Shown here: piece after piece, positions 21,847 to 55,301 of the stretch
How positions within the stretch are numbered: position 1 is the first letter of the stretch
Layout: every line of letters starts with the position of its first letter
NCBI GenBank assembly: GCA_964344235.1
Contig: CAYFMJ010000001.1
Coordinates: 88,664-152,663 of the forward strand
Direction of reading: 5' to 3'
Length of the DNA: 64,000 nt
Source of the DNA: an uncultured Methanosarcinales archaeon
Lineage (GTDB): Archaea; Nanobdellota; Nanobdellia; Woesearchaeales; GW2011-AR9
Position numbers and translations under genes: made by a program
The notes under the pieces: generated by a model
The model's input: the letters and a program-made list of their open reading frames with translations, nothing else
The model's database searches: none
What the model was told of the DNA's origin: nothing

Positions 21847-21931
21847 GGCGAGTGGGGCACGGCGCGATTATGGTGTCTTATTCGAACATTTTATTCTTGG
21901 ACACCATGCGCCCCATTTGGCGCCACTCGCC
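21847..21931. ncRNA. Structured RNA-like element, copy 1 of 2 (unknown family)
   Basis: Nested helices: ggcgagtgg/ccactcgcc, ggcgc/gcgcc and atggtgtc/gacaccat. Conserved unpaired GCAC, GATT and CCATTTGGC. Same architecture as 55211..55301, with compensatory changes. Confidence 0.4.
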
Positions 21932-21994
21932 TTCTCGACTCAATAAAAAAGTGTTTTCGTAATGTTTATAAAATCGTGAGCAGAATAGAAGAGA

Positions 21995-22546
21995 ATGGTC
22001 AATGCGACAGCAGTCGGAGGGGTTGTAGAGACAGCGCAGTCCTACTTTTACTCAATTATCATTGGAATTGTGATTCTGTTAATTGGTTTTGGCGCGGGAG
22101 TATTAGCGAAAAGAATCGTCCACAGGGTTCTGCGAGAAATTGAGTTGAATAAGATTATGAGTAAAGTGGGAATGCGTCATAATTTAGAGCGAACGATTAG
22201 TATTGTTATCTCGTATCTTATTTACATCGTAACGATTATCATCTTTTTGAAGCAGTTTGGTGTGATTCCCATCTACATTGTGTATCTCATTGTGGGAGCA
22301 ATTCTCATGTTAATGGCATTAACATTTATTGTAGGTTTGAAAGATGTTATCCCGAATTTTGTGGCATGGGTATTGTTGCAGAGAAAGGGTAAGATTAAGG
22401 AAGGGTATCATGTTAACGTTAGGGAGATTTATGGCGTTGTAGAAAGGGTTGGTTTTTTAGAAACAGAAATTAAGACAGATAATAATGATATTTTATATGT
22501 GCCAAATTCGTTATTTTTGAAATCGAAGTTTAGAGTAAGGAAGTGA
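21995..22546 (+). CDS. MscS-like small mechanosensitive channel protein (short form)
   Basis: Three TM helices, then a beta-domain-like VNVREIYGVVERVGFLETEIKTDNNDILYVPNSLF. Confidence 0.5.
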   Translation: MVNATAVGGVVETAQSYFYSIIIGIVILLIGFGAGVLAKRIVHRVLREIELNKIMSKVGMRHNLERTISIVISYLIYIVTIIIFLKQFGVIPIYIVYLIVGAILMLMALTFIVGLKDVIPNFVAWVLLQRKGKIKEGYHVNVREIYGVVERVGFLETEIKTDNNDILYVPNSLFLKSKFRVRK

Positions 22547-22786
22547 TTACTTCGCACTCTCTAACATGCTGATAACATCCCACACTTGTGTTCTATTATA
22601 AGAAGGCATGTCGATGTTGTTTAAATCTTCTAATTCCATCAACGCTTTCTCGATAGGAAGTTCAACATCACTGGAAAGAATTGTAATAACACTGGCTGCT
22701 TTTTCTTTAAATCGTTTGCAACAGTCTGGTTCTTCTTTTAATTCGCTGAGGTACTCAATGACTTCAGTCACTTGTTGTTTGTTCAT
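22547..22786 (-). CDS. UPF0147-family small alpha-helical protein
   Basis: The C-terminal NIDMPSYNRTQVWDVISMLE matches the NMPxHxRTQIWxI hallmark of UPF0147 as recalled. Confidence 0.5.
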   Translation of the reverse strand: MNKQQVTEVIEYLSELKEEPDCCKRFKEKAASVITILSSDVELPIEKALMELEDLNNIDMPSYNRTQVWDVISMLESAK

Positions 22787-23108
22787 CGTTGTTCTCTTCC
22801 TGTAATTCTTTCATAACTTCTTTCTGTAAGGATTCCATTTGCTCTTTGAGTTTATCCTCTTGTGAAGCGAAGTTTTTCAAATGGATCTCTGCAACGTCTT
22901 TCTTTTCCTGGAGATCTTTTGAAAGGTCTTCTTTAGAAGCGGCAATCATCATTTTGCCAAGAATCTTATAACTTTTATCGGTTGTTTTTATTTCAGTCAA
23001 TGCTGAGTTTAATTCTGTTAATTGTGATTCAATTTGTTGTTTTTGCATAGAGATGGAGTGAAGGTTTTGCTGCAGGAGTTGTAGTTGGTTTACCTTATCT
23101 GATGTCAT
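22764..23108 (-). CDS. pfdB: Prefoldin beta subunit
   Basis: 114 aa coiled-coil protein. NQLQLLQQNL...QKQQIESQL pattern. Conserved gene neighbourhood with rpoP and L37ae. Confidence 0.6.
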   Translation of the reverse strand: MTSDKVNQLQLLQQNLHSISMQKQQIESQLTELNSALTEIKTTDKSYKILGKMMIAASKEDLSKDLQEKKDVAEIHLKNFASQEDKLKEQMESLQKEVMKELQEENNDEQTTSD

Positions 23109-23117
23109 TTTTAAGAA

Positions 23118-23252
23118 TTAACGTGCTTTTACTTTGTTAACGGTTCTCCGATCTTTATAGAGGATCTTACCGCCACAGTAGGGGCATCTAATTTTAGTAC
23201 GAGTGTACTCGTCCTCTACTTTCTTTCCACAGTCAAAACAAACGTAATACAT
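23118..23252 (-). CDS. rpoP: DNA-directed RNA polymerase subunit P (RpoP/Rpb12)
   Basis: Not in the ORF track because it is under 60 aa. Manual translation gives MYYVCFDCGKKVEDEYTRTKIRCPYCGGKILYKDRRTVNKVKAR with CxxC...CxxC. Immediately downstream of L37ae. Confidence 0.75.
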   Translation of the reverse strand: MYYVCFDCGKKVEDEYTRTKIRCPYCGGKILYKDRRTVNKVKAR

Positions 23253-23253
23253 T

Positions 23254-23451
23254 TTATTTGGGTTTATAGGCTTTGCCAGCAAATTTAATGCCGGTTTTTT
23301 TACAGATCCAGATACCTAAGGAAAGTCGTTTTACTGTTGGTTTATTACAGAACGGGCTTTTGTACTTTTTTCGCTGCTGTGCTTCAATAGCGCCGAATTT
23401 CTTCTTAGGTTTTCGCCCGTACCGAGCTCCGAATCGTTTTGTTGATTTCAT
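23254..23451 (-). CDS. rpl37ae: Ribosomal protein L37ae (L43e)
   Basis: MKSTKRFGARYGRK... and GIWICKKTGIKFAGKAYKP align to L37ae. Only 2 of the 4 Zn-ribbon cysteines are retained. Confidence 0.8.
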   Translation of the reverse strand: MKSTKRFGARYGRKPKKKFGAIEAQQRKKYKSPFCNKPTVKRLSLGIWICKKTGIKFAGKAYKPK

Positions 23452-23464
23452 GTTGTTAGTATAA

Positions 23465-23571
23465 TGGTGGGGCCGCCCAGATTTGAACTGGGGTCTAAGC
23501 GTCCCAAACGCCCAATGCTAGATTGCTCCTAGCGACTTGTGTCTTGCTAGACCAAGCTACACTACGGCCCC
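23465..23571 (-). tRNA. Intron-containing tRNA with genomically encoded CCA; tentatively tRNA-Pro (anticodon UGG)
   Basis: Minus strand. Acceptor ggggccg/cggcccc, discriminator A, then CCA. T-arm cccag-TTCAAAT-ctggg. Candidate anticodon arm gggcg-tttGGGa... read as loop uuUGGga. About 30 extra nt lie between the D-region and the anticodon stem, which is a non-canonical intron position. Confidence 0.55.
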
Positions 23572-23630
23572 GTAGCGTCTTTATAAATGTTATGCTGAAA
23601 AAGGAGTAATTTAAAAGGTTTGTGGTTGAA

Positions 23631-24668
23631 TTAGAACTGTTTGATTATAATGAGGGATTTGGGTGCTCTAGTGAGAATTGTCAGTTTATTGGTCCAAACA
23701 ACGGTATCTTCGATTCGTAAGCCGATTTTATTCTTGATGTAAATGCCGGGTTCTATAGTAAATGGAACATTCTTTTCTACTTTCGCTGGTTGGGAAAAGA
23801 ATGGATCTTCATGGACTTCAATTCCGATTCCATGCCCCAGAGAGTGGATGAAGTATTTCGCGTGTTTTTTTAGTGTATTTCTTGCTGTTGTGTCGAGTTC
23901 CTTCAAAGAAATTTTTGGTTTGATTGCTTTAATTGCTGAAGTTTGTGCATTGAGTAAGAGGTTGTAGAGCATTTTTTGTTCTTCATTGGGAGTGCCTAAA
24001 AATATACACCGCGTCATGTCAGCACAGTAGTTTTTGTAGCGTGCGCCGAAGTCAACAAGGAGGAAACCGCGTTTTAGTGTGTCTGTAGAGGTAATGTGAT
24101 GAGGAGTGGCAGCGTTTGTGTGGGTTGCAGCTATTGTGGGGAAGGCTAAAGAAGCGCCTTTGGATTTGATGTGTCCTTCCAGGAAGAACGCAACGTCTTG
24201 CTCTGTTTTGAGCGTTTTCTTGGGGAGTTCTTTTACTAAGGCATTGAAAGCTGATGTGGTGATGGAGCAGGCTTTTGCGATTAATTGTAATTCCTTCGCA
24301 GTTTTTTGTTTTCTTAATGCATTGAGCTGCTTTGAAATATCAACAAATTTGGCTTTGGGGAATATTTTCTTTGCTTTGTCAAGCTGTTGGACTGTAAGAG
24401 AAGTCTTGTTAATGCCAACTTTCTTGGTGGTTTTACTGGTAATTGTTTTTTCAAAAGTTTTATCGAGAGTTTTGATCTTGATGTTCTTTAATCGTGGCTT
24501 TTTGTCTAATTTTGAGATGTAGAGTTTTGCTGATTTGGGAGTGATGAGGAGATAGCCGTGGGATGGTTCCATTTGAGTGAAGTAGGTGATTGTTGGATCA
24601 GGCGCCACGAAGAATGTTGTTTGGATTCTGTTCTTTTTGAGGAATCTCTGGAATTGTAAGAGTTTCAT
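23631..24668 (-). CDS. M24-family metallopeptidase (Xaa-Pro aminopeptidase/prolidase-like)
   Basis: Pita-bread fold motifs: HSLGHGIGIEVHEDP, a DxxR metal ligand, and an N-terminal creatinase-like domain. Confidence 0.75.
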   Translation of the reverse strand: MKLLQFQRFLKKNRIQTTFFVAPDPTITYFTQMEPSHGYLLITPKSAKLYISKLDKKPRLKNIKIKTLDKTFEKTITSKTTKKVGINKTSLTVQQLDKAKKIFPKAKFVDISKQLNALRKQKTAKELQLIAKACSITTSAFNALVKELPKKTLKTEQDVAFFLEGHIKSKGASLAFPTIAATHTNAATPHHITSTDTLKRGFLLVDFGARYKNYCADMTRCIFLGTPNEEQKMLYNLLLNAQTSAIKAIKPKISLKELDTTARNTLKKHAKYFIHSLGHGIGIEVHEDPFFSQPAKVEKNVPFTIEPGIYIKNKIGLRIEDTVVWTNKLTILTRAPKSLIIIKQF

Positions 24669-24745
24669 GAGGAAAATAAAATCAACAGTGTAATTAAATC
24701 TTATGCCTCCATAATCATTATAAACCTCAAAAATATGCTTTTTCT

Positions 24746-25948
24746 ATGCAAAAAGCGGTGTTGAAGAATGGATTAAAGGTTTTGTACCACCATAAACAGG
24801 GGAATGCGGTAGTGATTCAGGTAATGGTACATGTAGGGAGTAATAGAGAAACACCTAAAGAGCGAGGGATTTCCCACTTCCTTGAACACATTCTGTTTGA
24901 AGGAACTATAAAGAGGCCGACGAATGAATTGATTTCAAATGAAATTGAGAAGATTGGCGGCGAGTTTAATGCGTACACCGCAAATGAAAGGACATGTTTC
25001 TACATTAAAGTTCTGCAGAAGCATTTTGGAAAAGCAGTAGAGATCTTATCAGATATTTTACATAATTCATTATTTGATGAGGATCATATCAAGAAAGAGA
25101 AGCGGATTGTGTTAAAAGAGATTGATATGGTGTATGATGAACCAACGTACTATCAATGGATTTTATTACAGCAGAGTTTGTTTTCAAAACACCCATGTAG
25201 GGTTCCAACGTATGGAGATAGGAAAGTTATTGCCAATTTAACACGGCAGCAGGTGATTGATTATTTTGAGAAATATTACTTATCTAATAACATGACTGTT
25301 TCGATTGTAGGAGATGTGAAGCAGTGGAAACAGAAGATTGCAAAGAACTTTACGCTGCCGCAAGGGAAAGTCCCTGCTAGGAAAAGGATAGTGGAACCTG
25401 CTGCGAAACGGAACGTTGTTAAGAGAGAGAAGAGGAAAACTCTCAATACGTATAGTATTCTTGGTTTTAAGACTGTTCCCAGAAATCATCCCGATAGTCC
25501 GGTGTTGGAAGTGATTAATGGTATTTTAGGAAGAGGGCAGAGTGGCAAGATCTTTATTGAAGTGCGAAGTAAGAGAGGATTAGCGTATGAAGTTGGAACA
25601 CAGAATGTGGCGGAGATTAATTATGGTTATTTTGCTGTGTATTCAACCGTTGCAAAGGCAAAGGTTCGGTTGGTGAGAGATTTGGTGTTGAAAGAAATTG
25701 GGAAGTTATCTGCTGTAACGGAACAAGAAGTAAAAGAGGCGAAGACGTTTATTGAAGGGAGTTTCCTATTAGGAATGGATGATGCGCAGAAGTTGGCAGA
25801 TCAATTATTATTCTGGTCGCAAGTTGAGGATGCGGCACTTATGACGAAGTTTTTAGCAAGAATAAAGAAAGTTACGGTTGCTGATGTGAAGAGAGTGGTG
25901 AAGAAGTATTTTAAGAATTATACACACGTTGTGATTGAAGGGAAGTGA
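24746..25948 (+). CDS. M16-family zinc peptidase (pitrilysin/insulinase-like)
   Basis: Inverted zincin motif HFLEHILFEGT (HxxEH), and a downstream E. Confidence 0.75.
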   Translation: MQKAVLKNGLKVLYHHKQGNAVVIQVMVHVGSNRETPKERGISHFLEHILFEGTIKRPTNELISNEIEKIGGEFNAYTANERTCFYIKVLQKHFGKAVEILSDILHNSLFDEDHIKKEKRIVLKEIDMVYDEPTYYQWILLQQSLFSKHPCRVPTYGDRKVIANLTRQQVIDYFEKYYLSNNMTVSIVGDVKQWKQKIAKNFTLPQGKVPARKRIVEPAAKRNVVKREKRKTLNTYSILGFKTVPRNHPDSPVLEVINGILGRGQSGKIFIEVRSKRGLAYEVGTQNVAEINYGYFAVYSTVAKAKVRLVRDLVLKEIGKLSAVTEQEVKEAKTFIEGSFLLGMDDAQKLADQLLFWSQVEDAALMTKFLARIKKVTVADVKRVVKKYFKNYTHVVIEGK

Positions 25949-26888: not shown

Positions 26889-27958
26889 CGTGTGACGTTA
26901 AAAGATTGGACTTTCTTCAAGAGTTGTGCAGCTTTTTTGTTTTTCTTAAAATGTTGACGTGTCGGTTCAAGTAGCTGGTTGATAGCAGCTGCAACGCCTG
27001 TTTTAAGGTCGATTGATTTCAATGTTCCTTTCTTGAAAGCGGTTTCTAATTCTTCGTACGATTTGAATGAGAGGTTACCACCGTATTTTTCAGGACGTTC
27101 TATGTTTAGTGTCGGTAGTTTCTCAAAGACAATGTGTTTTGCGTATTCTAATACAGGATTGTCTTCAACAACACCGTCAATGCTATGTGCTTTCTTGAAT
27201 TTTCTTCTGACATCGTCTTCGGAATCGGTCATGAAGATAGCTGTGTTTGGTTTGGATTTACTCATTTTCATAGCGATCTTTCTGTCTGCACCTTGCAAAT
27301 TAGTTTGAGAGAATTGTAATCCTAACAACATATGGTGGTGTAAAGCAATTGGTTTTTTATGGCCGAGTTTAGGGAAAATATCACGAGCAAGCATGTTTAC
27401 TTTTCTTTGGTCTAGTCCTAATTGAGCGATGTCTGCTTTCAGATGAATAATATCGGCTGCTTGCATGAGCGGGTAGAGTATCTGTGCAGAAGGATTGGAA
27501 GCGGATTCTTCCCGTCCCATAATTTGGCCGCATCGTAGAACGCGTTGTACAGTTGCTGATGTTGATAGTTGTAAAACTGTCTGCCAGTAGCCCGGTTCTT
27601 TGACTAAATCAGACGCCCAGATGAATTCAACGTTCTTTGTGTCTAACCCACAGGATTTCCAGACTTCGATAAAGTATTCACCAACGGTTTGGATCTTTTT
27701 GATGTCTCCACCCATTTTATTGTTGATCATGGCATGCCAGTCCGCTACGAGCATTTTGAATTTGATGCCAGTACTAGTTAGCTTGTTAACGGTAATTGCT
27801 CGGAGAAGCCCCTGCGCGATGTGAATCTGACCAGACGGTTCGAAGCCGTCGTAAGCAATGGGAGTTTTTTTTGATTTGAGAAGTGATTCAAGCTCTGCTT
27901 CGGTGATGATTTCTTCCCCAACTTGTTTGATGAGGGAGAGTTTTTCTGTAGAGTTCAT
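26885..27958 (-). CDS. tyrS: Tyrosyl-tRNA synthetase (archaeal type)
   Basis: Class I motifs: a HIGH-like AYDGFEPSGQIHIAQG, and KMSKS. Confidence 0.8.
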   Translation of the reverse strand: MNSTEKLSLIKQVGEEIITEAELESLLKSKKTPIAYDGFEPSGQIHIAQGLLRAITVNKLTSTGIKFKMLVADWHAMINNKMGGDIKKIQTVGEYFIEVWKSCGLDTKNVEFIWASDLVKEPGYWQTVLQLSTSATVQRVLRCGQIMGREESASNPSAQILYPLMQAADIIHLKADIAQLGLDQRKVNMLARDIFPKLGHKKPIALHHHMLLGLQFSQTNLQGADRKIAMKMSKSKPNTAIFMTDSEDDVRRKFKKAHSIDGVVEDNPVLEYAKHIVFEKLPTLNIERPEKYGGNLSFKSYEELETAFKKGTLKSIDLKTGVAAAINQLLEPTRQHFKKNKKAAQLLKKVQSFNVTR

Positions 27959-28014: not shown

Positions 28015-28815
28015 TTAGCCATTAATACAGAATTGCGCTGCTTTTATCCCACCAGCATAAGCCTGATAGATTATGTTGGATAACGTAAGCGAACTTCCAT
28101 CAGCGAGGTTGACTGTTTCGCCCTCCATAACACTGACTTCCTCCCCGTTAATAACCAAATCAACAGACTTTATACCACCAGCATATGCTTGGTACAGTAA
28201 ATCGTCAAACACAACTTCGTAACTTTTTGAACCTGTTGTATAGGTATCTGATTCGCCTAGTTGAAGAGTTTCATCAATATCACATGGTCCCACGCAGTCA
28301 TACTCTATATCAAAATCGTTTTGAGTTGGATCTGACGCACTAGCGAAAGGGTAACTAACTCCTTCAATCTTAAGTGTAAAGTCAACTTCGCCACTTGGGT
28401 CAACAGAATACTCGTATGTTTCGCCGTTTTTGTAGTTTTTGAATTTTATTTTTGGAGATGTTGCAGTTTGCTTGTCGGCACCTTTGTATTCGAAAGGTGT
28501 GCCCCCCAACATGAATGTATCCTTCTTTTCAAAAACGTCTCCACATTCTGCTTCAAATGCTTTCTGAGCAGCTGAGACATCGTCTTTTAACTCTTTAATT
28601 ATGTCTACTGCCTTAGAAACCCTTTCGTAACAAGCACTTAAGCCATAACTTGCTTCACCTACCAGAGCAGAGTCTTCTTCTACTCCTTCACCAACAAGTT
28701 CATCAAAATCCTCACCTACCGCTTGTTCAGAAGCAGTTTCTTGAGCACAACCAACAATTAGGACTAGACCAATCAATAAAATGCTAAAAATTAATATTTT
28801 CTTCATTGTAAACAC
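28015..28815 (-). CDS. Secreted lipoprotein with an internal tandem repeat (YQAYAGGIK...)
   Basis: Lipobox IVGCAQ. An acidic linker. A duplicated about 25-aa C-terminal module. Confidence 0.4.
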   Translation of the reverse strand: MFTMKKILIFSILLIGLVLIVGCAQETASEQAVGEDFDELVGEGVEEDSALVGEASYGLSACYERVSKAVDIIKELKDDVSAAQKAFEAECGDVFEKKDTFMLGGTPFEYKGADKQTATSPKIKFKNYKNGETYEYSVDPSGEVDFTLKIEGVSYPFASASDPTQNDFDIEYDCVGPCDIDETLQLGESDTYTTGSKSYEVVFDDLLYQAYAGGIKSVDLVINGEEVSVMEGETVNLADGSSLTLSNIIYQAYAGGIKAAQFCING

Positions 28816-40647: not shown

Positions 40648-41850
40648 TTATGTGATCTGTAATGATTTTTCCAATAGTTCTCTCAGTTTTATAGTGAGGT
40701 TTTCTTCTAGAGGGCAGGTGATTTCTCGCGTTCTGCCATAACGACCTTTGGAAATTATTTTGGCGTTAATGATACCGAGCATGTCAAGTTCCGCTAGAAT
40801 GTCTGAGATCCGTCTCTGTGTAAGAACGTTGAAACTTGCTTTTTTACAAATAGAAGAGTACACATCATAAATTTCCCCCGTAAAAAAGCGACGTTTCTCG
40901 GGAGCGATAAGAAGTATTGAATAGAGAACTGTCTGAAATTGTTTTGGTTGACCTAAAGCTGCGCTTACGATTTTATCTGACTCTACTTTTTGTTCGGCTT
41001 CGTCAAGATGTTGGATTTCAATATTCGAAGAACCTTTGCGCTCAGCTAATTCTCCGGCAACTCGAAGTAGATCTATCGAGCGACGAACATCACCATGTTC
41101 ACGAGCGGCGTAGGCAGAGCATTTTTCGATGACTCCTACTTGAATAACGCTCTCTTGAAACGCTATAGCAGACCGTTTACGGAGAATATCTTGAATTTGG
41201 AGTGCATTATATGGAGGGAAGATAACTTCTTCCTCTGATAATGAAGATTTAACCCGAGGATCGAGGTTTTCTGCAAAAATGAGGTTGTTGGAAATCCCAA
41301 TAAGACAAATTTGCGAGCGACGAAGCTCCGCGTTGATTCTTGTTAAGTTATAGAGAATCTCATCCCCTATTTTTTTTGTTAGTTGATCGATTTCATCAAG
41401 TACAAGAAGAACAATTTGTTCTTGTTGATCAAGTAATTGGTAGAATGTACTATAGACTTCATCAGTGGGTAAGCCTGTTGAGGGAACTTCTTTACCAAAT
41501 TCTTTGATTAATTGGGCGAGTAAGCGGTATTCAGTATCGGCAACCCTTTTTAATTTGCAGTTGAGGTAGATTGGTTTAAGAGGAACTCTATTTTTTTCTG
41601 CTATCTCTGCCATGGAAGTGAGAATATGTTTCATAGAAAGGGTTTTGCCCGTTCCTGTTTTGCCATAAATGAAAAGGTTAGAAGGGCGTTCCATCCTCAA
41701 AGCTGGAGCAAGAATATTCGCGACCTCCTGAATTTGTTCTTCTCGAAAAAGAACGTTATCAGGCATATAGGATGAAAGAAGAGCTGATTTATCGTTGAAC
41801 AGAGAATCCTTTGCTAGAAAGTTTTCGAAAAAGTTACCTATTTGTACCAT
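40648..41850 (-). CDS. cdc6: Orc1/Cdc6 replication initiator
   Basis: AAA+ Walker A GKTGTGKT. Walker B LVLDEID. C-terminal winged helix. Adjacent to the AT-rich origin. Confidence 0.9.
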   Translation of the reverse strand: MVQIGNFFENFLAKDSLFNDKSALLSSYMPDNVLFREEQIQEVANILAPALRMERPSNLFIYGKTGTGKTLSMKHILTSMAEIAEKNRVPLKPIYLNCKLKRVADTEYRLLAQLIKEFGKEVPSTGLPTDEVYSTFYQLLDQQEQIVLLVLDEIDQLTKKIGDEILYNLTRINAELRRSQICLIGISNNLIFAENLDPRVKSSLSEEEVIFPPYNALQIQDILRKRSAIAFQESVIQVGVIEKCSAYAAREHGDVRRSIDLLRVAGELAERKGSSNIEIQHLDEAEQKVESDKIVSAALGQPKQFQTVLYSILLIAPEKRRFFTGEIYDVYSSICKKASFNVLTQRRISDILAELDMLGIINAKIISKGRYGRTREITCPLEENLTIKLRELLEKSLQIT

Positions 41851-42539
41851 ATAATCCCCTCGTTTTTTGCTAAATGTGGTAAGCGAATACCAGGAACCCC
41901 CTTATTTCCTGTGGAAACTTGTATTCTGCTTTTGTTTTGGGTAACAATTTTTCATGAATGATGTGTAGTGTTACCCAAATGAGTGTATTGGTGTTACCAA
42001 GACACCTTAATTTCTTATGGAAGTAGTTTAAATAGTTATTGCTGGATTAATGAGTAGTAACTAATAGGTGTTCTTGAAAATATTTTTTAGGAAAATTGTT
42101 TTTGAGTTAACGGAATTTGTTGTTGTGTTGTTCTTTTTGCTTTATTTTTTATCATTTATTTGTTATTTTATTGTTATAATTATATATTATATTATTATTT
42201 TCAATATAGAAATAATATAATAATAATAGAGAGCAAAGTGCTTGAATGAAAATTGAATTTTGTTTTTTGTTGTTGTAGTTGAGTTTCCATGTGAAATTAT
42301 TTCATTTATTATTATTATTGTTTAAGGTATGTAATAGTAGTAGTAGGGACGTGTATTATGCAACAAACAAACAGTCTGATTTTTTTCAAAATTACATTTT
42401 CCATAAGAAATGAAGGGGTGCTGCTTACTACACTAGCGTTTTCTACGACTATTTCTCTTTGTAGTGTAGGCAGACGGACTTTTTCTACTGAGTTTAGTAT
42501 ATAAAAACATTTAAATAGTTTTAAGAGGGTATTTCCAGC
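41851..42539. other. Chromosomal replication origin (oriC): mini-ORB boxes flanking an AT-rich DNA unwinding element
   Basis: ORB-like TTCCTGTGGAAAC at 41905-41918. Inverted pair tttcttatggaag (42011-42023) and ttccataagaaa (42397-42410). An 80-85% AT tract with tta/tag triplet runs at 42121-42340. Directly upstream of orc1/cdc6. Confidence 0.65.
42497..42509 (+). promoter_or_regulatory. TATA box (agtatataaaaac) for the 42540 gene
   Basis: About 30 nt upstream of the ATG. Confidence 0.35.
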
Positions 42540-43400: not shown

Positions 43401-44083
43401 AGAACTTTGACTTTACCAGGTTGGTTTTGGAAGATGTCTCCTTTCTCTAACATTTTTTCAAGCATCTTTTCTGTATCTGGCACTGTAGATTCAGCAATAA
43501 CGGTTTCTATTAACACTCCCTCTCCTTCGTCGAGCGTTTCAATAAGTTTTGCAATTTTTTCAAATGGCGGAATGTTTTCCGCTGGTTCTTGAATAATCTC
43601 TACGGAGGGTGTTGGTTTGGGAGTTTGTTGGGAAGGTTCCTCTGCTGTTTCTTTAGGAGGTTCTGTTACTTGTGTTGTTTGCTGTGTTGGCATTGTTTTT
43701 TGTAATTCCAATGAACGTAACTTTAACCATAAAGGATCAAGTTTTTTGATAATTTCTGGAGAAAGGTACTTTTCTTCGTTATATACTCTTACTTTCCCAA
43801 CAGCAAGTACGATGCTTCCAACAGTAAGGGCATCAAAGTGTTTGTTTTCCTCAAAAGAACGCGCAGTAAGAGTCGAGGTTCCGTCATCTAGAAGGAATGT
43901 TGTTATGGTTCCTGCTTTTTCTTTCTGGACAATTGTTGCAATAATATTAACACGGTATAATTTTTCACTGGTTTCTGTTAAAAGGTAATTATGTTCTTCC
44001 GCTTCCTGGACAAACGTTCCTGCCGTAATGTTCCGAATAGTTGTTTTACATGCAACGTGCCTTCTATATTTTGTTGTTTCCAT
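43397..44083 (-). CDS. OB-fold plus C-terminal winged-helix protein (RPA32/Stn1-like), translationally coupled to MCM
   Basis: Central OB-like beta region (YRVNIIATIVQKEK...VLAVGKVRVY). An acidic/Pro-rich linker. A C-terminal wH-like segment. Its start shares a nucleotide with the MCM stop. Confidence 0.45.
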   Translation of the reverse strand: METTKYRRHVACKTTIRNITAGTFVQEAEEHNYLLTETSEKLYRVNIIATIVQKEKAGTITTFLLDDGTSTLTARSFEENKHFDALTVGSIVLAVGKVRVYNEEKYLSPEIIKKLDPLWLKLRSLELQKTMPTQQTTQVTEPPKETAEEPSQQTPKPTPSVEIIQEPAENIPPFEKIAKLIETLDEGEGVLIETVIAESTVPDTEKMLEKMLEKGDIFQNQPGKVKVL

Positions 44084-46104
44084 TATAACCGCTGGATAAA
44101 GCCCCTCTTTGGTTCGAAGATGTCACCGGAGCGCCGAAGTTTTTCAAGCAATTCTTCAACTTTATCTTGTGGGATGTTTTTTTCTTGCGCTGCTTCGATG
44201 ATGTTTTCAACAGGAATAATTTTACTGGATAATTGCTCTTCCATCGCACTAATAATTTCTTTAATAGAACTAATACCTCCTCGTTGCGTAGCAGTGATTC
44301 TGCTGCTTAGTCTATCGATATCAATTTGTCCAGTTTCGGAATCTTTGGCAATTTGATTTAAACAATAGTCAACAAGCTCAATGGCTTTCTGTGCATCAAC
44401 TTTTGTTACTTTTTGTGCCAAGCGAATTTTGGCAGCAGCTTCAGCTAGTCTAACGAGCCCTTCCAATTGACGGGCGGTAATAGGAATACTTTTGACTCCA
44501 CTTTCATCTGAAATTCCAGAGTTACGCATTTTAACATAGTATTCTTTAATCTCTTCGATTGCTTCGTCAGTAATTTGTGGTTGAATTCTCTGACGAACAT
44601 AGGAAAAATATTTTCGTAGTAGCTCCGTTGGAATTTCAGACATACCTTTCTCAGGGTTTTTGTGTAGGCCAAGAATAAACGAAGCGGTTCGTTCATCTTT
44701 TTCCCGACTCGGCATGTCTTTTACTGGAAAAATGAGGTCAAACCGGTTAATTAATGTTGGAGGAAGGTTAATTTGGTTGGCAATTAAGTCGTAGGGGTCA
44801 AACCGGCCAAACTTTGGATTTGCTGCAGCAATAACAGTGGTTTCACAGCGTAAAGTTGCTTGGATATTTGCTTTAGAAACGCTCACGGTTTGCTGCTCTA
44901 ATGCTTCGTGTAGGGCGGAACGATCCTCTTTGGTCATTTTATCCATCTCATCAATAACTGCAAAGCCTTTATTTGCTAATACTAATGTTCCTGCTTCTAA
45001 ACTCCAGCCACCAAGGAATTCATCTTTGACGACACTTGCTGTTAGACCGGCAGCAGTTGCGCCTTTTCCTGAAGTGAACCTCGCTTTTGGAGCAACTTTT
45101 GTGATTCGTTTAAGAAGTTGTGATTTCCCTGAACCAGGATCTCCGATCAGAAGTACGTGCATATCCCCTCTTGTAATGACACCATCAGGACGGACTTTCC
45201 GACAACCACCTGCTAGTTGTAAAACAAGCGCTTCTTTGATTTTATCGTGCCCATAAATGGAAGGGGCGATGCTGGAAGAGATCATGTTAAGTGGATTTTC
45301 ACCGGCAGCAATTTCTTTGATTTGTTCCAAGTCTTTGTCAGAAATTTTCATATCAACGGAATCATCTTGCACTGGTTCAACGAAATTAGATTCCAAGATT
45401 AAATCGTATTTTGTTGCTTTCCCTCCAGAACGGAGAGTGATGGGAACTTCAGTTACCCAGCCGGAAAGAATAACTCTCGACCCAGGACTTGATTTCCGTT
45501 CTGAAATTGGAGACACAAGATCATCTTTAAGGAAGACGTTGATCCGTTTAGGTTGTGCTCCGTCTAACTCATCCGGTGCTTCTTCTAGCACTAAACCTTG
45601 GCCGTCAACAAGTTCTTTTGAAATTTCTTTGAACTTTCCTTTTCTACCGCAGCCACATCGTGTTGGTTCTTTGTATTTCTGATCTAACTGCAGGACGTTA
45701 AGAATATTACCGCAGGAAGGGCATTCAAACTTGGCAGCGGTTACATGGGGCCGTACATTAGATTTTTGCCGGACAATGCCTTCCATCCAGACAAATTTTT
45801 CAAGATGTTTACTTCGCACCTCGCTAATCAAAATTTTCTGTGACTCTGGCAGGTTTTTGAGCCTGACTGTGAATTTAGTGATTTTTTTTGGAAGGTCAAA
45901 TTCTTTGACTGCTATCTCTGCTGCTTTAAGAAGTTCTTGTGGGGCTTCCAGGAGTTCGTCTGTGATGTCGGGGTTGAATTTAAGAAGTTCTGCAAAGTCT
46001 AATACTAAATATGTTTGGCCTTTACGAACTGCTTCAAGAAGTTGTGGATGATAATTTTGTTCGATAAATTCTCTAAATACTTTAATTTGTTCGTCGACGT
46101 CCAC
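44083..46104 (-). CDS. mcm: MCM replicative helicase
   Basis: Zn finger CPSCGN...CGCG. Walker A GDPGSGKS. Walker B IDEMDKM. Arginine finger region. 673 aa, no intein. Confidence 0.9.
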   Translation of the reverse strand: MDVDEQIKVFREFIEQNYHPQLLEAVRKGQTYLVLDFAELLKFNPDITDELLEAPQELLKAAEIAVKEFDLPKKITKFTVRLKNLPESQKILISEVRSKHLEKFVWMEGIVRQKSNVRPHVTAAKFECPSCGNILNVLQLDQKYKEPTRCGCGRKGKFKEISKELVDGQGLVLEEAPDELDGAQPKRINVFLKDDLVSPISERKSSPGSRVILSGWVTEVPITLRSGGKATKYDLILESNFVEPVQDDSVDMKISDKDLEQIKEIAAGENPLNMISSSIAPSIYGHDKIKEALVLQLAGGCRKVRPDGVITRGDMHVLLIGDPGSGKSQLLKRITKVAPKARFTSGKGATAAGLTASVVKDEFLGGWSLEAGTLVLANKGFAVIDEMDKMTKEDRSALHEALEQQTVSVSKANIQATLRCETTVIAAANPKFGRFDPYDLIANQINLPPTLINRFDLIFPVKDMPSREKDERTASFILGLHKNPEKGMSEIPTELLRKYFSYVRQRIQPQITDEAIEEIKEYYVKMRNSGISDESGVKSIPITARQLEGLVRLAEAAAKIRLAQKVTKVDAQKAIELVDYCLNQIAKDSETGQIDIDRLSSRITATQRGGISSIKEIISAMEEQLSSKIIPVENIIEAAQEKNIPQDKVEELLEKLRRSGDIFEPKRGFIQRL

Positions 46105-46775: not shown

Positions 46776-46803
46776 AATACATTCCCCCTATACCCTCTAA
46801 TTT

Positions 46804-49533: not shown

Positions 49534-49736
49534 TAACCGCCGGAAATGACACTGAGAATTTCAATAGTATCTTGATCATGTAATTGATCATCAGATGTTA
49601 GAACTTCGTTGTTTTTTGTTATGAGAACAGTTTCTTCGTTTATGTTTAGTTGTTGTAGAAGTTCAGCTACTGTCGTTTTGTCAAAGCTGATGTGGTTTGT
49701 TGTTTGTTCTCGTTCGTCTACTATTGTTAGGTGCAT
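49533..49736 (-). CDS. Ubiquitin-like small archaeal modifier / sulfur carrier (SAMP, ThiS/MoaD fold) ending in Gly-Gly
   Basis: 67 aa. C-terminus ...ILSVISGG. First gene of the SAMP-NcsA-E1 operon, and its stop overlaps the ncsA start. Confidence 0.6.
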   Translation of the reverse strand: MHLTIVDEREQTTNHISFDKTTVAELLQQLNINEETVLITKNNEVLTSDDQLHDQDTIEILSVISGG

Positions 49737-49828
49737 TCTTTCCTCCCCTGAGTCCGCTAATCGGGCCGAGGTTTGTAAGGGTTAATTTAGGGGTGGTTTT
49801 TTAAATATCTTCTGTATAATATAGGTTT

Positions 49829-50311
49829 ATGGAGAATATTGTGTTGAAGGAAGGTCTTGGGGGAGATTTTGGTAGTTCTAAGCTCGTTTCTTTGATTGAA
49901 GGCAAAACGAAAAAAGAATTACTGTCTAATTTGAAAATAAATAAAGGAAAAACAACAGTTTATAGGGCTTTGAGTGAGGAGATGTTACGGTTTGCTTTGG
50001 AAAGAACTGATGTTGATATTGTGTTGGGAATGGAGGGTATTCATTACAAAGATCACACACATTACCCTCGTGGCGGTTTGGATCAGATTACAAGTAAAAT
50101 TGCTGCTGCGAAAGGTAAGACTATTGGGTTTTCGTTTGCGGATATTTTGCGTTCGAAAGATAGAGGAAGATTATTGGGTAGAATGATGTTGAATATTCGG
50201 TTGTGTAAGAAGTATAATGTCAAAATGGTGTTTAGTTCATTTGCCTCTTCAAAATCGGAGATGCGAAGTACAAAAGATTTGGAAGCATTTTGGCGCATTC
50301 TTTCTCGGTAG
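49829..50311 (+). CDS. RNase P protein subunit Rpp30-like (short)
   Basis: PHP/TIM-barrel-like pattern (VDIVLGMEGIHYKDH...IGFSFADIL...KMVFSSFASS). 160 aa, which is shorter than typical Rpp30. Confidence 0.45.
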   Translation: MENIVLKEGLGGDFGSSKLVSLIEGKTKKELLSNLKINKGKTTVYRALSEEMLRFALERTDVDIVLGMEGIHYKDHTHYPRGGLDQITSKIAAAKGKTIGFSFADILRSKDRGRLLGRMMLNIRLCKKYNVKMVFSSFASSKSEMRSTKDLEAFWRILSR

Positions 50312-50358
50312 CGTTAATAACATTTATAAACAATGGTTGTTTGTTTTTGAGTATACTT

Positions 50359-53300
50359 ATGGTGGAGAAAAAAAGAGGTTTAGTTTTAGTAGTCTTTGTT
50401 GCTTTTCTAGTAGTGATGAGCGTGGGTGTTTTAGGTGTTCCTGACAAGAATACAGATGCTTTTCCAACCATTGGACACCGGGCCGATTTAGGTTATGAAT
50501 ATGATCAGGGTTGTGGTTCTTATGATGTTGACGATTGCCCGCAAGGTGACACTTACAAGCTAGATGAAGATCACAGTACCTGTTCTGCATCAGGAAGCGA
50601 TTTGTCTCCTTTATTCGATGCCTGTAAAATTTTTTTTGTCGATAAAGATGAGGGAAATGATGATGGGGGGTTTGGGCTAGCAGATGAGGGTTATATTCTA
50701 GACTCAGTTGGCTACGAAAAACTTGGCCTTCACAGCTATGAGAAAGTCTGTGGGCAAGAAGGAGACCATGATAATGATGGGGTTGAGGGGCTAAAAGGAG
50801 CGAAGTTTAAAGCAGCTGATAATACTGCATATATTTGTGGAAATAACCTGGGAGAACCAAATAAATGGTATAAATGTACTTCAGAGACGCTTGACACTGT
50901 AACATGGGCAAACGGTGACTTATATAATTGTACTTTCAGTGCTAGTACTGGCTTTCCAACTTGGAAAAACGAAGGAGGGGATACGGACTTTGATACTTTT
51001 GCTCAAGAGGTAGATTGTAAAGATAACCCCCCGAGTGGATCCTGTTTAAACCTGGCACCAGAAGATTGTGCAAGCTCTCCTGAAAATTATGAATGCCCAC
51101 AGTGTATTAACCCTGATGCGCCTGAGGTATGTGGAGATGGCAAAAACAATGATTGCAATGAAGCGACTTCTGATAACTGTCATGATAATCAGGCAGCATG
51201 TGAGGCACTTGACACGGCAGTTGGTTGGAATATTCATGATGAGAAATATGCTTGGCAACAAACGGGAAGCGAGGGAGCCGGTTTCTGTTGTGGATTCAGT
51301 GGAAGTGGTGATGGTAATGTAGGGGAGGTGTCGGAGAGTATTGGTGGCACTAACAAGCTATGTGTGAATAAAGAATATACCACAACAAACGGAGAGATTT
51401 CATCAAGTGAGACCGAAGGAGTTGAGTGTAGTGGATCTGGGTGGTGTTTAGTGAGCGCAGTTGTTGGGTCTAAGTTTCAGATATACACTATTGCAGAACC
51501 GGAAAAAGAACCTTATGATGTTGTTTCCAATGGAGATAATTGGTATGAATGTAGTAGCAGCTACCATGAACCTCTGCTACCGGAAGATACAGGTGTAAGG
51601 ACAAAGGCTAATGCGTTTTACTGCTTCGATGAGGGAAATCATTGGAGTTGGGCTGAATGTCCTTTAGGGGAAGAGGGTGAAGTTGAAAGCGAGAATAGCG
51701 GTACGACTAAAATTAGGCACAAAGGAGATGGATTATATCAGCTGTTTCCAACAAATGATAAAAACCAGTTTGGAGTTTTGGTAGATGCAAAGGATCCAAT
51801 TTACACAAGTTTGTATAGTGAGGATTTCTTGTTAGATTTTAGCGGATATAACCAATTGAATTTTATGATTCAGTTTCTGAGTGAAGTAACCCTGCCAGCT
51901 GATGTTAAGGTGCAAATTTATGGTTCTGATGATGAGCTGAAATGGCAAGGGAATGTTCTTGGCTTTAGTACTAATAATCCTGTGCTAGTTGCAGATACGT
52001 TCTTTCATGTGCAAGTTCCCATTGCTCCGTTTAAAGATGTTGAGAAAGTTCTGATAGAGAGTATTGGCGACTTCAATCATATTGAGGTGAAGAATATTTA
52101 TATGAGTGTCCAGGGAGAGCAACCCTACTTGTGTTCGGCAAAGCAATCAAACCAACCACAACAACCAGCATGGTTGACGAATGCAGATGACATTATTGAA
52201 AATACATTGATTACTGGAGAAAATATTTGTAATGAGTTGTATGGTGGCTGGTTAGGAGATGAAGTAGATGATGTCGAAAGAAGGTGTTGTGGTGATGATG
52301 TGGGGGAATATTATGCTGGCCCAGGAAAGAACGGTTGTTGGAATTCTGAAGTTGTTGTAGGTGGGGGAACAATGATGAATGCTCAAGTTGAGGTTACGTC
52401 ACAATATTCAACAGTTGGAGAGGTTGAGGGTGTAGCAGTGAGAACTGTTACATTTGAGTGGGACTATGCAACGCCTTCAGAGGATCCGGTGACTCTTACG
52501 GATGCTGAGTGTAAGCAATATACAAAAGAGCACAATTGTCCTATTGGCTGTAAGTGGGTAGCTGATTACGGGGTTGGATGTATTGCATTAAATGCAGATG
52601 CGATTATTGCTGCACCAACTTCAGGCGTTAATACGCAAGAAGCTTCAATTGAGATTGAGTATGATGGCTCTACTGTTTCGCCGAAGTCTATCACACTGAA
52701 AGAATTGGGGTTTGAGGTTGAGGGTGTTGAATCAGGAGAGTTATCTATAAACACGGGAATCGAACTCTTCATTGCTGGCTCTTTTCAAGATCACGGTGAT
52801 GAATTCGAGTTTTTCTCTGAGAGCGATTATATTTTAGGAAATAATCAGTTTGAAGTTGGCGATTTTAAAGATATTAGCTTTTCCTTTGTTCATGATGATA
52901 ACTACTATGAAAATAATAAAGAAACGGTGAAGAAGCTTGTTGTTGGTACTCAACCAGAGGAAATGATGAAAACGTATTCGTGCTCTCAAGCGGCGTGTAC
53001 GTTCCCAATTCCGGGGTTTCCACCGTATACTATCAGTAACCCGTTCCCTGATTTATATGAGATATATTTTGTTGATGGACCAGGAATTGATGATAGACAT
53101 CCAATTGATAAGAATGGAAAGACGTTTGATCAGGTAGGGAATGTTGAAGTCACAAAGGTTGCACAGCAAGTTGTGCTTGTTAATAGTGATACAGAGCATC
53201 AATTTTATGGTTGTGCGCCTTCGCAAACGTTAATTAACAGTATTCCTACAGAAGATCAAGATAGTTTCACTGCATTAAGCCATTGCGCGGTGAAAGCAGA

Positions 53301-55209
53301 TAGGTTTTGTTCATTTAGTTACACGGAGGATGGCGTGACAACAATTAATTCGTGGAGTGACGATGCTTTAGAACATGTTGGGTATGAAGCGTTAGAAGAT
53401 GATCCGAAGGAGTTGGAGGGTTTGCATAATTTACAATTGAAAACACTGCCTACTAACGAACAAGAGATAATTCCACCTACGGATAGAAATTGGTCGACAA
53501 CTGCTTTCCCAGGACAGAATATTTTACCAAATGCGTTGTTTGAAATTGATAGTCAAGGAAGTGTGAAAAGAATTGCCCATTGGGTTGTTATTGATAGTGA
53601 AGGGTTAGAAGTTTCGAATGTTAATGCGAAACATATCCCTTTTGATGATCCAGAGAGGGTAGAGTTGGGAGGTGGAGAGATTCTAAGATCTTCTAGGATA
53701 GCACTGCCGCAAGGTGTTGATGAAACAATGGCGTTATCGCATGAGGGAGAAGGGGTGAAAGAGAGTGTTATTTTAGTTGATGGTGAAGGGGATATTGATA
53801 TTGTAAATGATGGAGAGTTCTCTACAGACGGTGCAGGGTATGTGGTAATTGAATTTACAGGACCTGGAAGTGTGGCACAACCGATCTTACAATTTGTCGA
53901 TGAAGATTTTGAACCTGTTGCATTCCATTATGATGGGGAAAAACAAAAAGTGCAAGAAAATTTTCAGGAACGTGCAGGAGTAGCATGTTGCCCACAGGAT
54001 TGGTGCTGGAATGGGTATACATGTGCAGAGCCGATGAGTGAAAATACCTTCGCAGCAGAGTTACTGCCAGATAATAGAACGTATAGGTGTGTAGGGGGAG
54101 AGTGGACAGAGCTGCCTGTAAAGAGAGATTGGAACGTGGCAGGATTTGGGTTTTGCGAACAAAAGGATCAGTGTTTCGTGACAAGTTCGTTAATGGGTGG
54201 CGATAATACTGCTGAGGCGATTGACTTTTACAATGGGAATTATCCAACCTGTGTTGACGATGGAGAGTTTATTTTCGACCATTACTGTGATGCCGGTAAT
54301 TGGACTTCACGAACGAAGTTTATTGCATCGGAGTTATTAGATGCGATTGGTGAGACAGATGAATATGCACTGTATTGTGATTCGTTTGAGAAAGTTCTTC
54401 CACAATTAGATGGGCATGATTTATTGTTTAGTGGGGAGTTGGTAGCGGATGCAGAAGTGGTTGGTTCAATTAGTGACCAGTTAGGGGGAGTGGAACCAGA
54501 ACAGACGTTTATACAGGTGTGCTTTGAGAATGTGAATAATAATGAACGAGGTAGAGAGTTAGTACCAACAGACCAGAATAAATGTGTGAATAATGTCTGT
54601 GTGTTGCAGTATAAACAGGGTGGAAAGAATAAAGTAGCGTTTGCAGCGTCTTTGAATCCGGCAGAGAACTCTTTCTTGACAGCGTTTGATATTCCAGCAG
54701 GAGAGGTAGCAACGTTATGTGGTGGTGAAGGGTTTAATGATTGTAATGTTGACCTAGCAGGGGACTTTTGGTATTCAGAAGAGTTAGATGCGTTTGTGTA
54801 TGGGAAAGATGGAATAGATTTAGATACAGGGTTCTTTGGAGGAATTCTGGATTTCTTTAGTGGTTTATTTGGTAATGGTATTGCGGAAGAGAATACGGAT
54901 TTTATTGCACAAGCGGAGAATTATCGAGATGTATATGTGTTGCAGCATGAGAATAAATTGGTTCGAGCGATTAAAGAGCAGCAAGGTCAGAAAGAGATTC
55001 TAGTAGCGGAGTTTGAAGGGTTTCAATCGCCAGTGTGTGAGTACGTGGAGAATGTTGGGTTGCCTGAGAAGCCAGCGTTTGAAGGGGCAACGAGCGTGGA
55101 TTTGGTGTGTAGTAGTGAGGAAGGCGTGCAGAAGTTTGAATTAGTTGATGATACGGATGTGTTCTGGGATCGGTTTGCGGGAAGGTTGAGGCCGCAAGAG
55201 AGTAGTTAG
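50359..55209 (+). CDS. Giant (about 1616 aa) Cys-rich secreted/surface protein
   Basis: The track ORF is 50290..55209. The likely true start is the ATG at 50359, followed by a signal anchor LVLVVFVAFLVVMSVGVLG. Acidic, with many Cys including CCG motifs (GFCCGFSG, RRCCGDD, VACCPQDWCW). No C-terminal anchor. Confidence 0.6.
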   Translation: MVEKKRGLVLVVFVAFLVVMSVGVLGVPDKNTDAFPTIGHRADLGYEYDQGCGSYDVDDCPQGDTYKLDEDHSTCSASGSDLSPLFDACKIFFVDKDEGNDDGGFGLADEGYILDSVGYEKLGLHSYEKVCGQEGDHDNDGVEGLKGAKFKAADNTAYICGNNLGEPNKWYKCTSETLDTVTWANGDLYNCTFSASTGFPTWKNEGGDTDFDTFAQEVDCKDNPPSGSCLNLAPEDCASSPENYECPQCINPDAPEVCGDGKNNDCNEATSDNCHDNQAACEALDTAVGWNIHDEKYAWQQTGSEGAGFCCGFSGSGDGNVGEVSESIGGTNKLCVNKEYTTTNGEISSSETEGVECSGSGWCLVSAVVGSKFQIYTIAEPEKEPYDVVSNGDNWYECSSSYHEPLLPEDTGVRTKANAFYCFDEGNHWSWAECPLGEEGEVESENSGTTKIRHKGDGLYQLFPTNDKNQFGVLVDAKDPIYTSLYSEDFLLDFSGYNQLNFMIQFLSEVTLPADVKVQIYGSDDELKWQGNVLGFSTNNPVLVADTFFHVQVPIAPFKDVEKVLIESIGDFNHIEVKNIYMSVQGEQPYLCSAKQSNQPQQPAWLTNADDIIENTLITGENICNELYGGWLGDEVDDVERRCCGDDVGEYYAGPGKNGCWNSEVVVGGGTMMNAQVEVTSQYSTVGEVEGVAVRTVTFEWDYATPSEDPVTLTDAECKQYTKEHNCPIGCKWVADYGVGCIALNADAIIAAPTSGVNTQEASIEIEYDGSTVSPKSITLKELGFEVEGVESGELSINTGIELFIAGSFQDHGDEFEFFSESDYILGNNQFEVGDFKDISFSFVHDDNYYENNKETVKKLVVGTQPEEMMKTYSCSQAACTFPIPGFPPYTISNPFPDLYEIYFVDGPGIDDRHPIDKNGKTFDQVGNVEVTKVAQQVVLVNSDTEHQFYGCAPSQTLINSIPTEDQDSFTALSHCAVKADRFCSFSYTEDGVTTINSWSDDALEHVGYEALEDDPKELEGLHNLQLKTLPTNEQEIIPPTDRNWSTTAFPGQNILPNALFEIDSQGSVKRIAHWVVIDSEGLEVSNVNAKHIPFDDPERVELGGGEILRSSRIALPQGVDETMALSHEGEGVKESVILVDGEGDIDIVNDGEFSTDGAGYVVIEFTGPGSVAQPILQFVDEDFEPVAFHYDGEKQKVQENFQERAGVACCPQDWCWNGYTCAEPMSENTFAAELLPDNRTYRCVGGEWTELPVKRDWNVAGFGFCEQKDQCFVTSSLMGGDNTAEAIDFYNGNYPTCVDDGEFIFDHYCDAGNWTSRTKFIASELLDAIGETDEYALYCDSFEKVLPQLDGHDLLFSGELVADAEVVGSISDQLGGVEPEQTFIQVCFENVNNNERGRELVPTDQNKCVNNVCVLQYKQGGKNKVAFAASLNPAENSFLTAFDIPAGEVATLCGGEGFNDCNVDLAGDFWYSEELDAFVYGKDGIDLDTGFFGGILDFFSGLFGNGIAEENTDFIAQAENYRDVYVLQHENKLVRAIKEQQGQKEILVAEFEGFQSPVCEYVENVGLPEKPAFEGATSVDLVCSSEEGVQKFELVDDTDVFWDRFAGRLRPQESS

Positions 55210-55210
55210 A

Positions 55211-55301
55211 ATATGTCCCGCTTGCACGGCACGATTACGGTGACTTCTTGAATCTTTTTTATCTACGCCACCGTGTGCCTCCATTGGCAAAGCGGACATA
55301 T
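55211..55301. ncRNA. Structured RNA-like element, copy 2 of 2
   Basis: Helices atatgtcc(c)gctt/aagcggacatat, ggcac/gtgcc and acggtg/caccgt. Conserved GCAC, GATT and CCATTGGC. Lies 50 nt upstream of the 855-aa gene. Confidence 0.4.

Follow-up and report, generated by a model that had tools for sequence, protein, structure and literature searches.

Archaeal MITEs (miniature inverted-repeat transposable elements) have been reviewed for Sulfolobus (SM1-SM4), Haloquadratum and Halobacterium, and the direct repeats that flank them fade in old copies (PMC10969869). A MITE census also reported a high density, 105 per Mb, in 'a Woesearchaea genome' (PMC11602168). Here we analyzed a 64,000-nt stretch of contig CAYFMJ010000001.1 (positions 88,664 to 152,663 of the forward strand, hereafter called the window), where two imperfect palindromes lie 33 kb apart on the plus strand, one at 21833-21944 (copy 1) and the other at approximately 55202-55309 (copy 2). 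Very probably, both palindromes are old, end-decayed copies of a MITE family that is dispersed in DPANN (Woesearchaeota-type) archaea, and not gene-regulatory RNAs. The assignment follows from the defining features of MITEs, all of which the family shows: inverted repeats at its termini, target-site duplications that differ between copies, a multiple and dispersed occurrence, and a lack of coding capacity. Like other prokaryotic MITEs, its members are short, non-coding and AT-rich (outside a conserved core), carry terminal inverted repeats with flanking direct repeats in young copies, and are multicopy, intergenic and able to fold into long hairpins. There are also differences. The family described here belongs to DPANN archaea and is without a known parent insertion sequence (IS), and its most conserved part is a central asymmetric hairpin rather than the termini, with subfamilies that have different arms sharing the same centre. 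A literature search found no description of this particular MITE family.

Other well described repeats also share some of these properties. The ERIC/IRU and Correia elements (100-150 bp, enterobacteria and Neisseria) are likewise intergenic imperfect palindromes of ~125 bp that occur in either orientation, that have a conserved secondary structure, and that may end up in 3' untranslated regions (UTRs) or beside promoters. They differ in being bacterial and unrelated in sequence, and in that their effects on mRNA stability and promoter activity have been measured. REP/REPIN elements are likewise hairpins with compensatory pairing and a few conserved unpaired bases, and their doublets form larger hairpins. 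In contrast to the family described here, which has 7-9 bp duplications, REPINs have no target-site duplication and no terminal inverted repeats of the DDE kind, and the RAYTs that mobilise them are known from bacteria. Finally, riboswitches and other leaders also have covarying helices around conserved unpaired nucleotides. The elements described here differ from these RNAs by apparently being located outside of 5' UTRs, by having no tie to a gene family and by not being conserved at orthologous loci. They also occur in either orientation, and a single genome can hold many copies that are nearly identical.

An original prediction, made from the letters of the window, had placed two copies of a structured RNA-like motif at 21847-21931 and 55211-55301 of the plus strand, and sequence and alignment both confirm two elements at these positions. 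Both hairpins reach further out than was noted earlier, to the outer coordinates given above. Specifically, copy 1 as a whole is an imperfect palindrome in both DNA and RNA folds with decayed termini (arms ATTAAGTC...GACTCAAT), and it is matched by a covariance model of the family (CM R1) at 21843-21936 with 79.4 bits (E=3.6e-20). Its conserved core at 21857-21921 reads GC-AC-GGCGC-GATT-ATGGTGTCT-loop-GGACACCAT-GCGCC-CCATTTG-GC, where an outer stem (21847-21855 with 21923-21931) encloses a GC/GC pairing (21857-58 with 21920-21), helix 1 (21861-65 with 21908-12), the GATT bulge (21866-69), helix 2 (21870-78 with 21899-907), the loop (21879-98) and the CCATTTG strand (21913-19). Copy 2 is a diverged member of a subfamily that we call type A, with a match to the same model at 55210-55303 (83 bits, E=3.4e-21). 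Its core at 55224-55288 reads GC-AC-GGCAC-GATT-ACGGTG-loop-CACCGT-GTGCC-TCCATTG-GC, with an outer stem made up of 55211-18 plus 55220-23 paired with 55289-93 plus 55294-301, helix 1 at 55228-32 with 55275-79, GATT at 55233-36, helix 2 at 55237-42 with 55269-74, and TCCATTG at 55280-86.

The core that is common to both copies is thus GCAC-GGCRC-GATT-AYGGTG-loop-CACCRT-GYGCC-(N)CCATT(T)GGC, and the compensatory differences described in the original prediction are present as noted (GGCGC/GCGCC versus GGCAC/GTGCC, and ATGGTG/CACCAT versus ACGGTG/CACCGT). One refinement is that in both copies the GC of the GCAC segment pairs with the GC of TTGGC. Outside of the core the outer stems of the two copies are unalignable, and the T-rich loops are 20-26 nt in length with TTTATA-like motifs in the element loops and a T6 run in the loop of copy 2. 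Overall the two copies are 75% identical to each other. A 19-nt pattern of the 5' side of the core has exactly two matches in the window and none in 100 shuffles, and the covariance model, run with its filters off, finds only these same two copies in the 64 kb. Relative to shuffled sequences, RNA fold z-scores of both copies are -3.9 to -6.2 and DNA fold z-scores are -2.3 to -4.6 on either strand.

Relatives in other genomes were located with a pattern that fixed part of the core but put no constraint on helix 2, on the loop or on two of the helix 1 positions; note that all counts from the GTDB genome and metagenome scans are lower bounds. At least 13 contigs of the Nanoarchaeota metagenome-assembled genome (MAG) H41-bin204_1 carry true matches of a second subfamily, type B, and this genome also has at least one type-A copy. 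Among the matches listed there are also two other Nanoarchaeota/Woesearchaeota MAGs, as well as one 2.3-kb contig that is binned as Methanosarcinales, a doubtful binning for so short a contig. The metagenome scan adds at least three more subfamilies among the matches listed, and one 60-kb metagenome contig (Ga0210057_1000583) has at least three elements. Matches in bacteria were without the helices and were rejected as chance, and viral contigs scanned for the core gave no match.

When the H41 copies are aligned together with 300 nt of flanking sequence, they resolve into a sharply bounded palindrome of ~125 bp with a mean identity of 91% that is surrounded by unrelated flanks. Pairing of their termini (GTACGTATTTAGTT / AACTAAATACGTAC) is complete in 3 of the 12 copies and nearly so in the other nine, and GTACGTATTTAGTTGCG...AACTAAATACGTAC is an example of the terminal inverted repeat of intact members. 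The type A subfamily has arms GTAAGTAATAKGTC at both ends, and members with GTAAGTAATATGTC arms come from four or more further sources, either genomes or metagenome samples. The arms of copy 2 (GTAGTTAGAATATGTCC.../...GGACATATCCTATCAC) resemble the GTAAGTAATATGTC arms of the members at four loci (L036, L022, L032 and L020). Two larger units were each found as two copies that have 98% identity and unrelated flanks, one of 183 bp (L028 and L042) and the other of 201 bp (L035 and L040). Family units are 112-201 bp in length with no open reading frame (ORF) of 60 or more amino acids within any unit, although flanking ORFs overlap the ends of some units, copy 2 included. The L035 (6045-6193) and L040 (3499-3647) copies are nested double elements in which a complete inner core, on the opposite strand, is located in the apex of an outer element with core GCAC-GGCGC-GTAG-...-GCGCC-TCCTTTGGC. 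The outer stem of the inner element doubles as helix 2 of the outer element, the covariance model scores both layers, and the composite possibly has 3-bp duplications (AAG, AAA).

Marks of transposition were scored with a boundary-anchored test, in which direct repeats exactly at the element ends are compared with mismatched pairs of left and right flanks. Direct repeats of 7-11 nt flank eight of the 12 H41 copies as compared to 1 of 132 mismatched controls; this test replaced an earlier control that had scored 120 of 506 owing to contamination by shared arm sequence. The duplications differ for each copy, as for example CATTTCC at L028, TAAAAAT at L042 and TTTTATTA at L032. The original prediction had favored a selected RNA structure rather than a MITE, a view that is not upheld by these relatives, which are discrete units of 125-200 bp that end in inverted repeats and are flanked by target-site duplications of 7-9 bp. 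In regards to the window, neither copy 1 nor copy 2 has a detectable target-site duplication, as would be expected of old insertions, and their arms are complementary but diverged from the H41 and type A consensus.

There is also insertion polymorphism at the copy 1 locus. The Drg GTPase-MscS spacer in which copy 1 is located is 213 nt in the window versus 78, 78, 4 and 106 nt in four relatives that keep the prefoldin-MscS-Drg-Asn-synthase synteny with ~80% Drg identity. No covariance model match was found within ~20 kb of this locus in the two relatives that were searched by DNA. The MITE status of the window copies would thus rest on family membership and, for copy 1, on these apparently empty orthologous sites. 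A search for an autonomous element with the same termini, by terminal-repeat motifs and long-range inverted repeats in ~350 kb of DPANN loci plus the window, found none. The sole transposase that was seen is in an IS4/Tn5-like IS (L032, 300-1882; Tnp_DNA_bind, DDE_Tnp_1 and Dimer_Tnp_Tn5 domains) that is located ~100 nt from a family member. This IS has 16-bp inverted ends (CTTATCTTTACCCATA) that are unrelated to the MITE termini.

Covariation in the central hairpin extends well beyond the two window copies. Every true match is complementary at the positions that the pattern left free, with helix 2 taking at least six different sequences. When 27 sequences are placed on the model, 99% of the cells are standard pairs and 63 cells are changed on both sides, with only 3 G-U among 395 paired cells and 4 cells unpaired. 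Controls in which the pairing partner is slid by 1-3 columns are 24-55% paired. Double changes occur in 8 of 15 pairs, and the covariation score is 0.426 versus 0.144 for shuffles and at most 0.122 for the slid controls. The core helices change by double substitutions only, without one-sided intermediates. The H41 termini have many one-sided mismatches that are partly CpG-type transitions, and for that reason apparent 'compensatory' changes at these termini were not used as evidence for structure. The claim that this is a covarying structure, and not a chance one, is thus borne out by further copies and compensatory changes in other genomes.

Whether this structure functions as RNA is a different matter. 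Mean fold energies are similar for the two strands (-51.6 versus -49.3 kcal/mol), and an attempt to assign a strand from G-U versus A-C mismatches and from fold energies gave no preference. The equal folding of both strands suggests a constraint at the level of DNA. Of the proposal that the elements are structured RNAs, the covarying structure stands whereas an action as RNA is not supported, given that both strands fold equally and that G-U pairs are nearly absent. Comparison with known RNA families, which had been proposed as a check, found no Rfam 15 match at the gathering score in the 64-kb window, no match over either window element at E<=10, and no match at E<=1 in six loci with other family members. 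ARAGORN calls no tRNA or tmRNA in the window, and it also calls none beside the L018 copy where a tRNA had been suspected by eye. Several other motifs were rejected by eye and not with a dedicated tool. These are K-turn, H/ACA, C/D and bulge-helix-bulge intron motifs, which were compared with the bulge geometry (bulged strand without tandem G-A pairs, no consistent ACA, and both bulges on the same strand). A target-site hairpin of a diversity-generating retroelement at the 3' end of the 1639-aa gene beside copy 2 was also rejected, as there is no reverse transcriptase in the window and the context of copy 1 differs.

The genes around the two copies are those of a DPANN-type chromosome segment, with Pfam matches on the source contig to Orc1/Cdc6, MCM, PolD, TBP, TFE, Hjc, RNase P p30 and prefoldin, and among Drg GTPase homologues with a named source the closest are labelled as Woesearchaeota or Nanoarchaeota. 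Copy 1 is between a divergent Drg GTPase gene (20684-21781, minus strand) and a gene for a 183-aa MscS-domain protein (21995-22546, plus strand; PF00924). Copy 2 follows directly on a gene for a Cys-rich surface protein of 1639 aa, starting at its stop codon, and leaves 51 nt to the start of an 855-aa gene. Since the left arm of copy 2 contains the TAG stop of the 1639-aa gene (55207-55209), this stop may have been brought in by the insertion, at the expense of the earlier C-terminal codons. Both copies are in the sense orientation at 51-63 nt upstream of the next ATG, an arrangement that underlies the earlier proposal of a cis-regulatory leader.

The location of promoters is informative on this point. 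TATA-like hexamers in the window peak at 26-30 nt upstream of start codons (45 versus 8 or fewer in any other bin), and this peak at -30 from the ATG indicates that the mRNAs of window genes are probably leaderless. Specifically, there is a TTTATA box at 21965-21970 (plus strand) that is downstream of copy 1 and 30 nt before the ATG of the MscS-like gene (21995), and a TTTATA box at 55323-55328 (plus strand) that is downstream of copy 2 and 30 nt before the ATG of the 855-aa gene (55353). On the minus strand, a TTAAAA box at 21805-21810 is 29 nt before the ATG of the Drg GTPase gene (21781), which leaves copy 1 in the spacer between two divergent promoters. Thus, with a TATA box between each element and the downstream ATG, neither element would be in a 5' leader.

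Other members of the family show no consistent relationship to their neighbors. Of the copies that lie between tandem genes, 8 have the sense and 5 the antisense orientation, and another one has convergent genes on its two sides; note that divergent contexts are uninformative on orientation. The downstream genes of the same orientation code for MscS (twice), Trm5/TYW2, a rubrerythrin-like protein, TatD, a T2SSE ATPase, HsdM, the NOG1 GTPase, a pectate-lyase-like protein, an aldolase, a transglutaminase and a glycosyltransferase. The second MscS case is at L008 (976-2195), where a family member is 86 nt upstream, on the same strand, of an MscS-family gene (357 aa; PF00924, PF21082). The L008 and window MscS proteins have no similarity that is detectable by tblastn and the neighbors of the other copies are unrelated, so this parallel with copy 1 is probably a coincidence. 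Together the intervening TATA boxes, the empty orthologous spacers, the mixed orientation and the unrelated downstream genes run counter to the proposal of a cis-regulatory RNA.

A model that accommodates these results is as follows. An intact member is a palindrome of 125-200 bp that has no coding capacity, that ends in inverted repeats and whose exact centre is a conserved asymmetric hairpin composed of GC, an AC x (T)CCATTG internal loop, a 5-bp helix, a GATT bulge, a 6-9 bp helix and an AT-rich loop. Mobilization would involve a DDE-type transposase that is supplied in trans and that makes staggered cuts, as judged from a target-site duplication of ~8 bp and established transposon mechanics. 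Insertions that survive would be those that spared both the TATA box of the next gene, by landing upstream of it, and the preceding gene, by landing right after its stop codon; both window copies are placed in this way. These two copies have lost recognisable duplications and intact termini and are probably immobile now. The strict Watson-Crick covariation would reflect that the element itself needs its DNA to fold, for instance into a cruciform or a single-stranded hairpin, which would bring the two ends of such a short element together or be bound by the transposase or a host protein. Under this model the constraint on the central hairpin would not come from a regulatory RNA that serves the neighboring genes.

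Several observations weigh against the conclusion that the window elements are old MITE copies. Both lack a detectable target-site duplication and intact terminal repeats, and there is no autonomous element with matching termini in the ~350 kb of DPANN sequence. The centre is conserved while the arms and termini vary by subfamily, which is the reverse of a textbook MITE, and one subfamily possibly has a 3-bp rather than an ~8-bp duplication. The conservation of the core is in part ascertainment, as the relatives were found by a core-based pattern; a conserved centre with differing arms is also seen in the two window copies, which were found independently of that pattern. Finally, both window copies have perfectly paired stems despite their decayed ends, which is unexpected for purely neutral relics. 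It is conceivable, but unlikely, that the central hairpin is a functional folded module that has been kept or acquired by MITE subfamilies with different termini and possibly different transposases.

We also considered explanations in which the elements act as RNA. A leader RNA, either a riboswitch or a protein-binding 5' UTR of the downstream membrane or surface protein genes, would account for the covarying structure, for the sense orientation of both window copies at 51-63 nt from the next ATG and for the L008 copy at 86 nt from an MscS-family gene. We consider it highly improbable, as TATA boxes at -30 separate the elements from the ATG of genes that appear leaderless, the Drg-MscS spacer of four relatives is without the element, 5 of 13 tandem-context copies are antisense with one more between convergent genes, the downstream genes (Trm5, TatD, HsdM, NOG1, aldolase, glycosyltransferase and others) are unrelated, and one genome has at least 13 near-identical copies with target duplications. 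A better case can be made for the central hairpin being a functional RNA module that is carried by, or exapted from, a MITE. Candidates for this module would be a 3'-end stabilizer or terminator of the upstream gene, a protein-binding small RNA or an unrecognized ribozyme, with expression by read-through or from TATA-like sequences inside the element. Unpaired AC, GATT and (T)CCATTG segments that are conserved between covarying helices are the usual anatomy of a functional RNA, and the core is common to subfamilies with different arms. Copy 2 begins where the 1639-aa gene stops and carries six consecutive T in its loop (T6), the window stems are perfect despite decayed ends, and the loops contain TTTATA-like motifs. 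Nevertheless, neither folding nor the use of G-U pairs (3 G-U in 395 paired cells) favors one strand, and there is no orientation bias relative to transcription and no Rfam match even at E<=10, and copy 1 is between divergent promoters where no transcript is evident from the sequence, all of which make an RNA module unlikely.

Two further explanations involve other types of DNA mobility. HUH transposases recognise hairpins by structure together with specific unpaired bases, as exemplified by IS608 TnpA and RAYT. The family would fit a REP/REPIN-like or IS200/IS605-derived (PATE-like) element that moves as single-stranded DNA by an HUH (Y1) transposase in so far as it is stem structure and not stem sequence that is conserved along with specific unpaired bases, both strands fold, and a nested hairpin-in-hairpin copy exists. 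This origin is very unlikely, since HUH transposition occurs without target-site duplication yet 7-9 bp duplications flank most of the young copies, the termini are true inverted repeats, and neither the Pfam matches of the window nor the scanned flanking genes of the fetched loci include a Y1 transposase, OrfB or TnpB. Integrons have been reported in archaeal MAGs, and there is a superficial likeness in layout to attC recombination sites (outer stem, unpaired central spacer, an inner stem that has extrahelical bases, and a terminal loop that varies). That the elements are attC-like sites has next to no probability, as each window copy stands alone amid housekeeping genes, 33 kb from the other and outside of any cassette array, the window lacks an integrase gene, the RYYYAAC/GTTRRRY core sites are absent from the outer stems, and the relatives are flanked by target-site duplications. 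The copies were likewise rejected as attL and attR ends of an integrated element at 21.8-55.3 kb. They are 75% identical with compensatory changes and not exact direct repeats, and the interval between them holds the core replication genes MCM, Orc1/Cdc6, PolD and TBP.

The window contains several other features. A 690-nt intergenic region at 41851-42539 next to orc1/cdc6 (40648-41850, minus strand) looks like a replication origin, with inverted boxes that resemble mini-origin recognition boxes (ATTTCCTGTGGAAACT at 41904-19 and AGTTTCCATGTGAAAT at 42282-97, plus TTCCATAAGAAATGAAGGGG from 42399). The boxes flank a very AT-rich stretch at ~42140-42320, the MCM, PolD and TBP genes are near, and the cumulative GC skew does not turn there. 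Across the window (1-64000) GC skew is positive in nearly all 2-kb bins regardless of gene strand (44001-46000 is at -0.007), and the cumulative skew climbs almost monotonically to 7.3. A free-standing LAGLIDADG_3 ORF of 251 aa is present at 2357-3112, with a similar ORF elsewhere in the syntenic block of one relative (L055). The 684-aa gene at 18280-20334 is a fusion of asparagine-synthase-like and diphthine-ammonia-ligase (Diphthami_syn_2) parts that are separate, opposite-strand genes in P0008, P0010 and P0012 and that are fused in P0016 (L056). A perfect 18-bp inverted repeat (TTGGTCTAGTCCTAATTG; 27407-27424 and 28755-28772), of which ~0.003 pairs are expected by chance, sits in the adjacent coding regions of a class-I tRNA synthetase and a 266-aa secreted protein and has no obvious meaning. 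Finally, 50290-64000 codes for very large Cys-rich, N-terminally anchored proteins of 1639, 855 and 356 aa, with one of 2061 aa beyond. No Pfam domains were found in the 1639-, 855- and 356-aa proteins, and this run is one of typical DPANN surface proteins.

The identification of the window elements as probable MITE copies removes a false lead, in that what looked like a riboswitch-like covarying hairpin next to membrane-protein genes is in all likelihood a mobile repeat. It also makes a DPANN MITE family searchable, through its core pattern and covariance model as well as through its terminal repeats and the ~8-bp size of its duplication. Mobile elements of DPANN archaea are poorly catalogued, and repeats such as these can fragment assemblies and confuse screens for non-coding RNA. 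If the central hairpin were indeed a functional folded module, it could be a cruciform or single-stranded DNA recognition element that is needed for end synapsis in short archaeal MITEs, a structure-dependent synapsis step that is undescribed for DDE-type MITEs. Alternatively, MITEs could carry along a so far undescribed ribozyme or small RNA. With such a functional module of either kind, the nested L035 and L040 copies would represent its insertion into, or templating of, hairpin apices. Strand-symmetric, strictly Watson-Crick covariation of a conserved centre in elements with varying termini points to a requirement for folded DNA in the transposition of very short elements.

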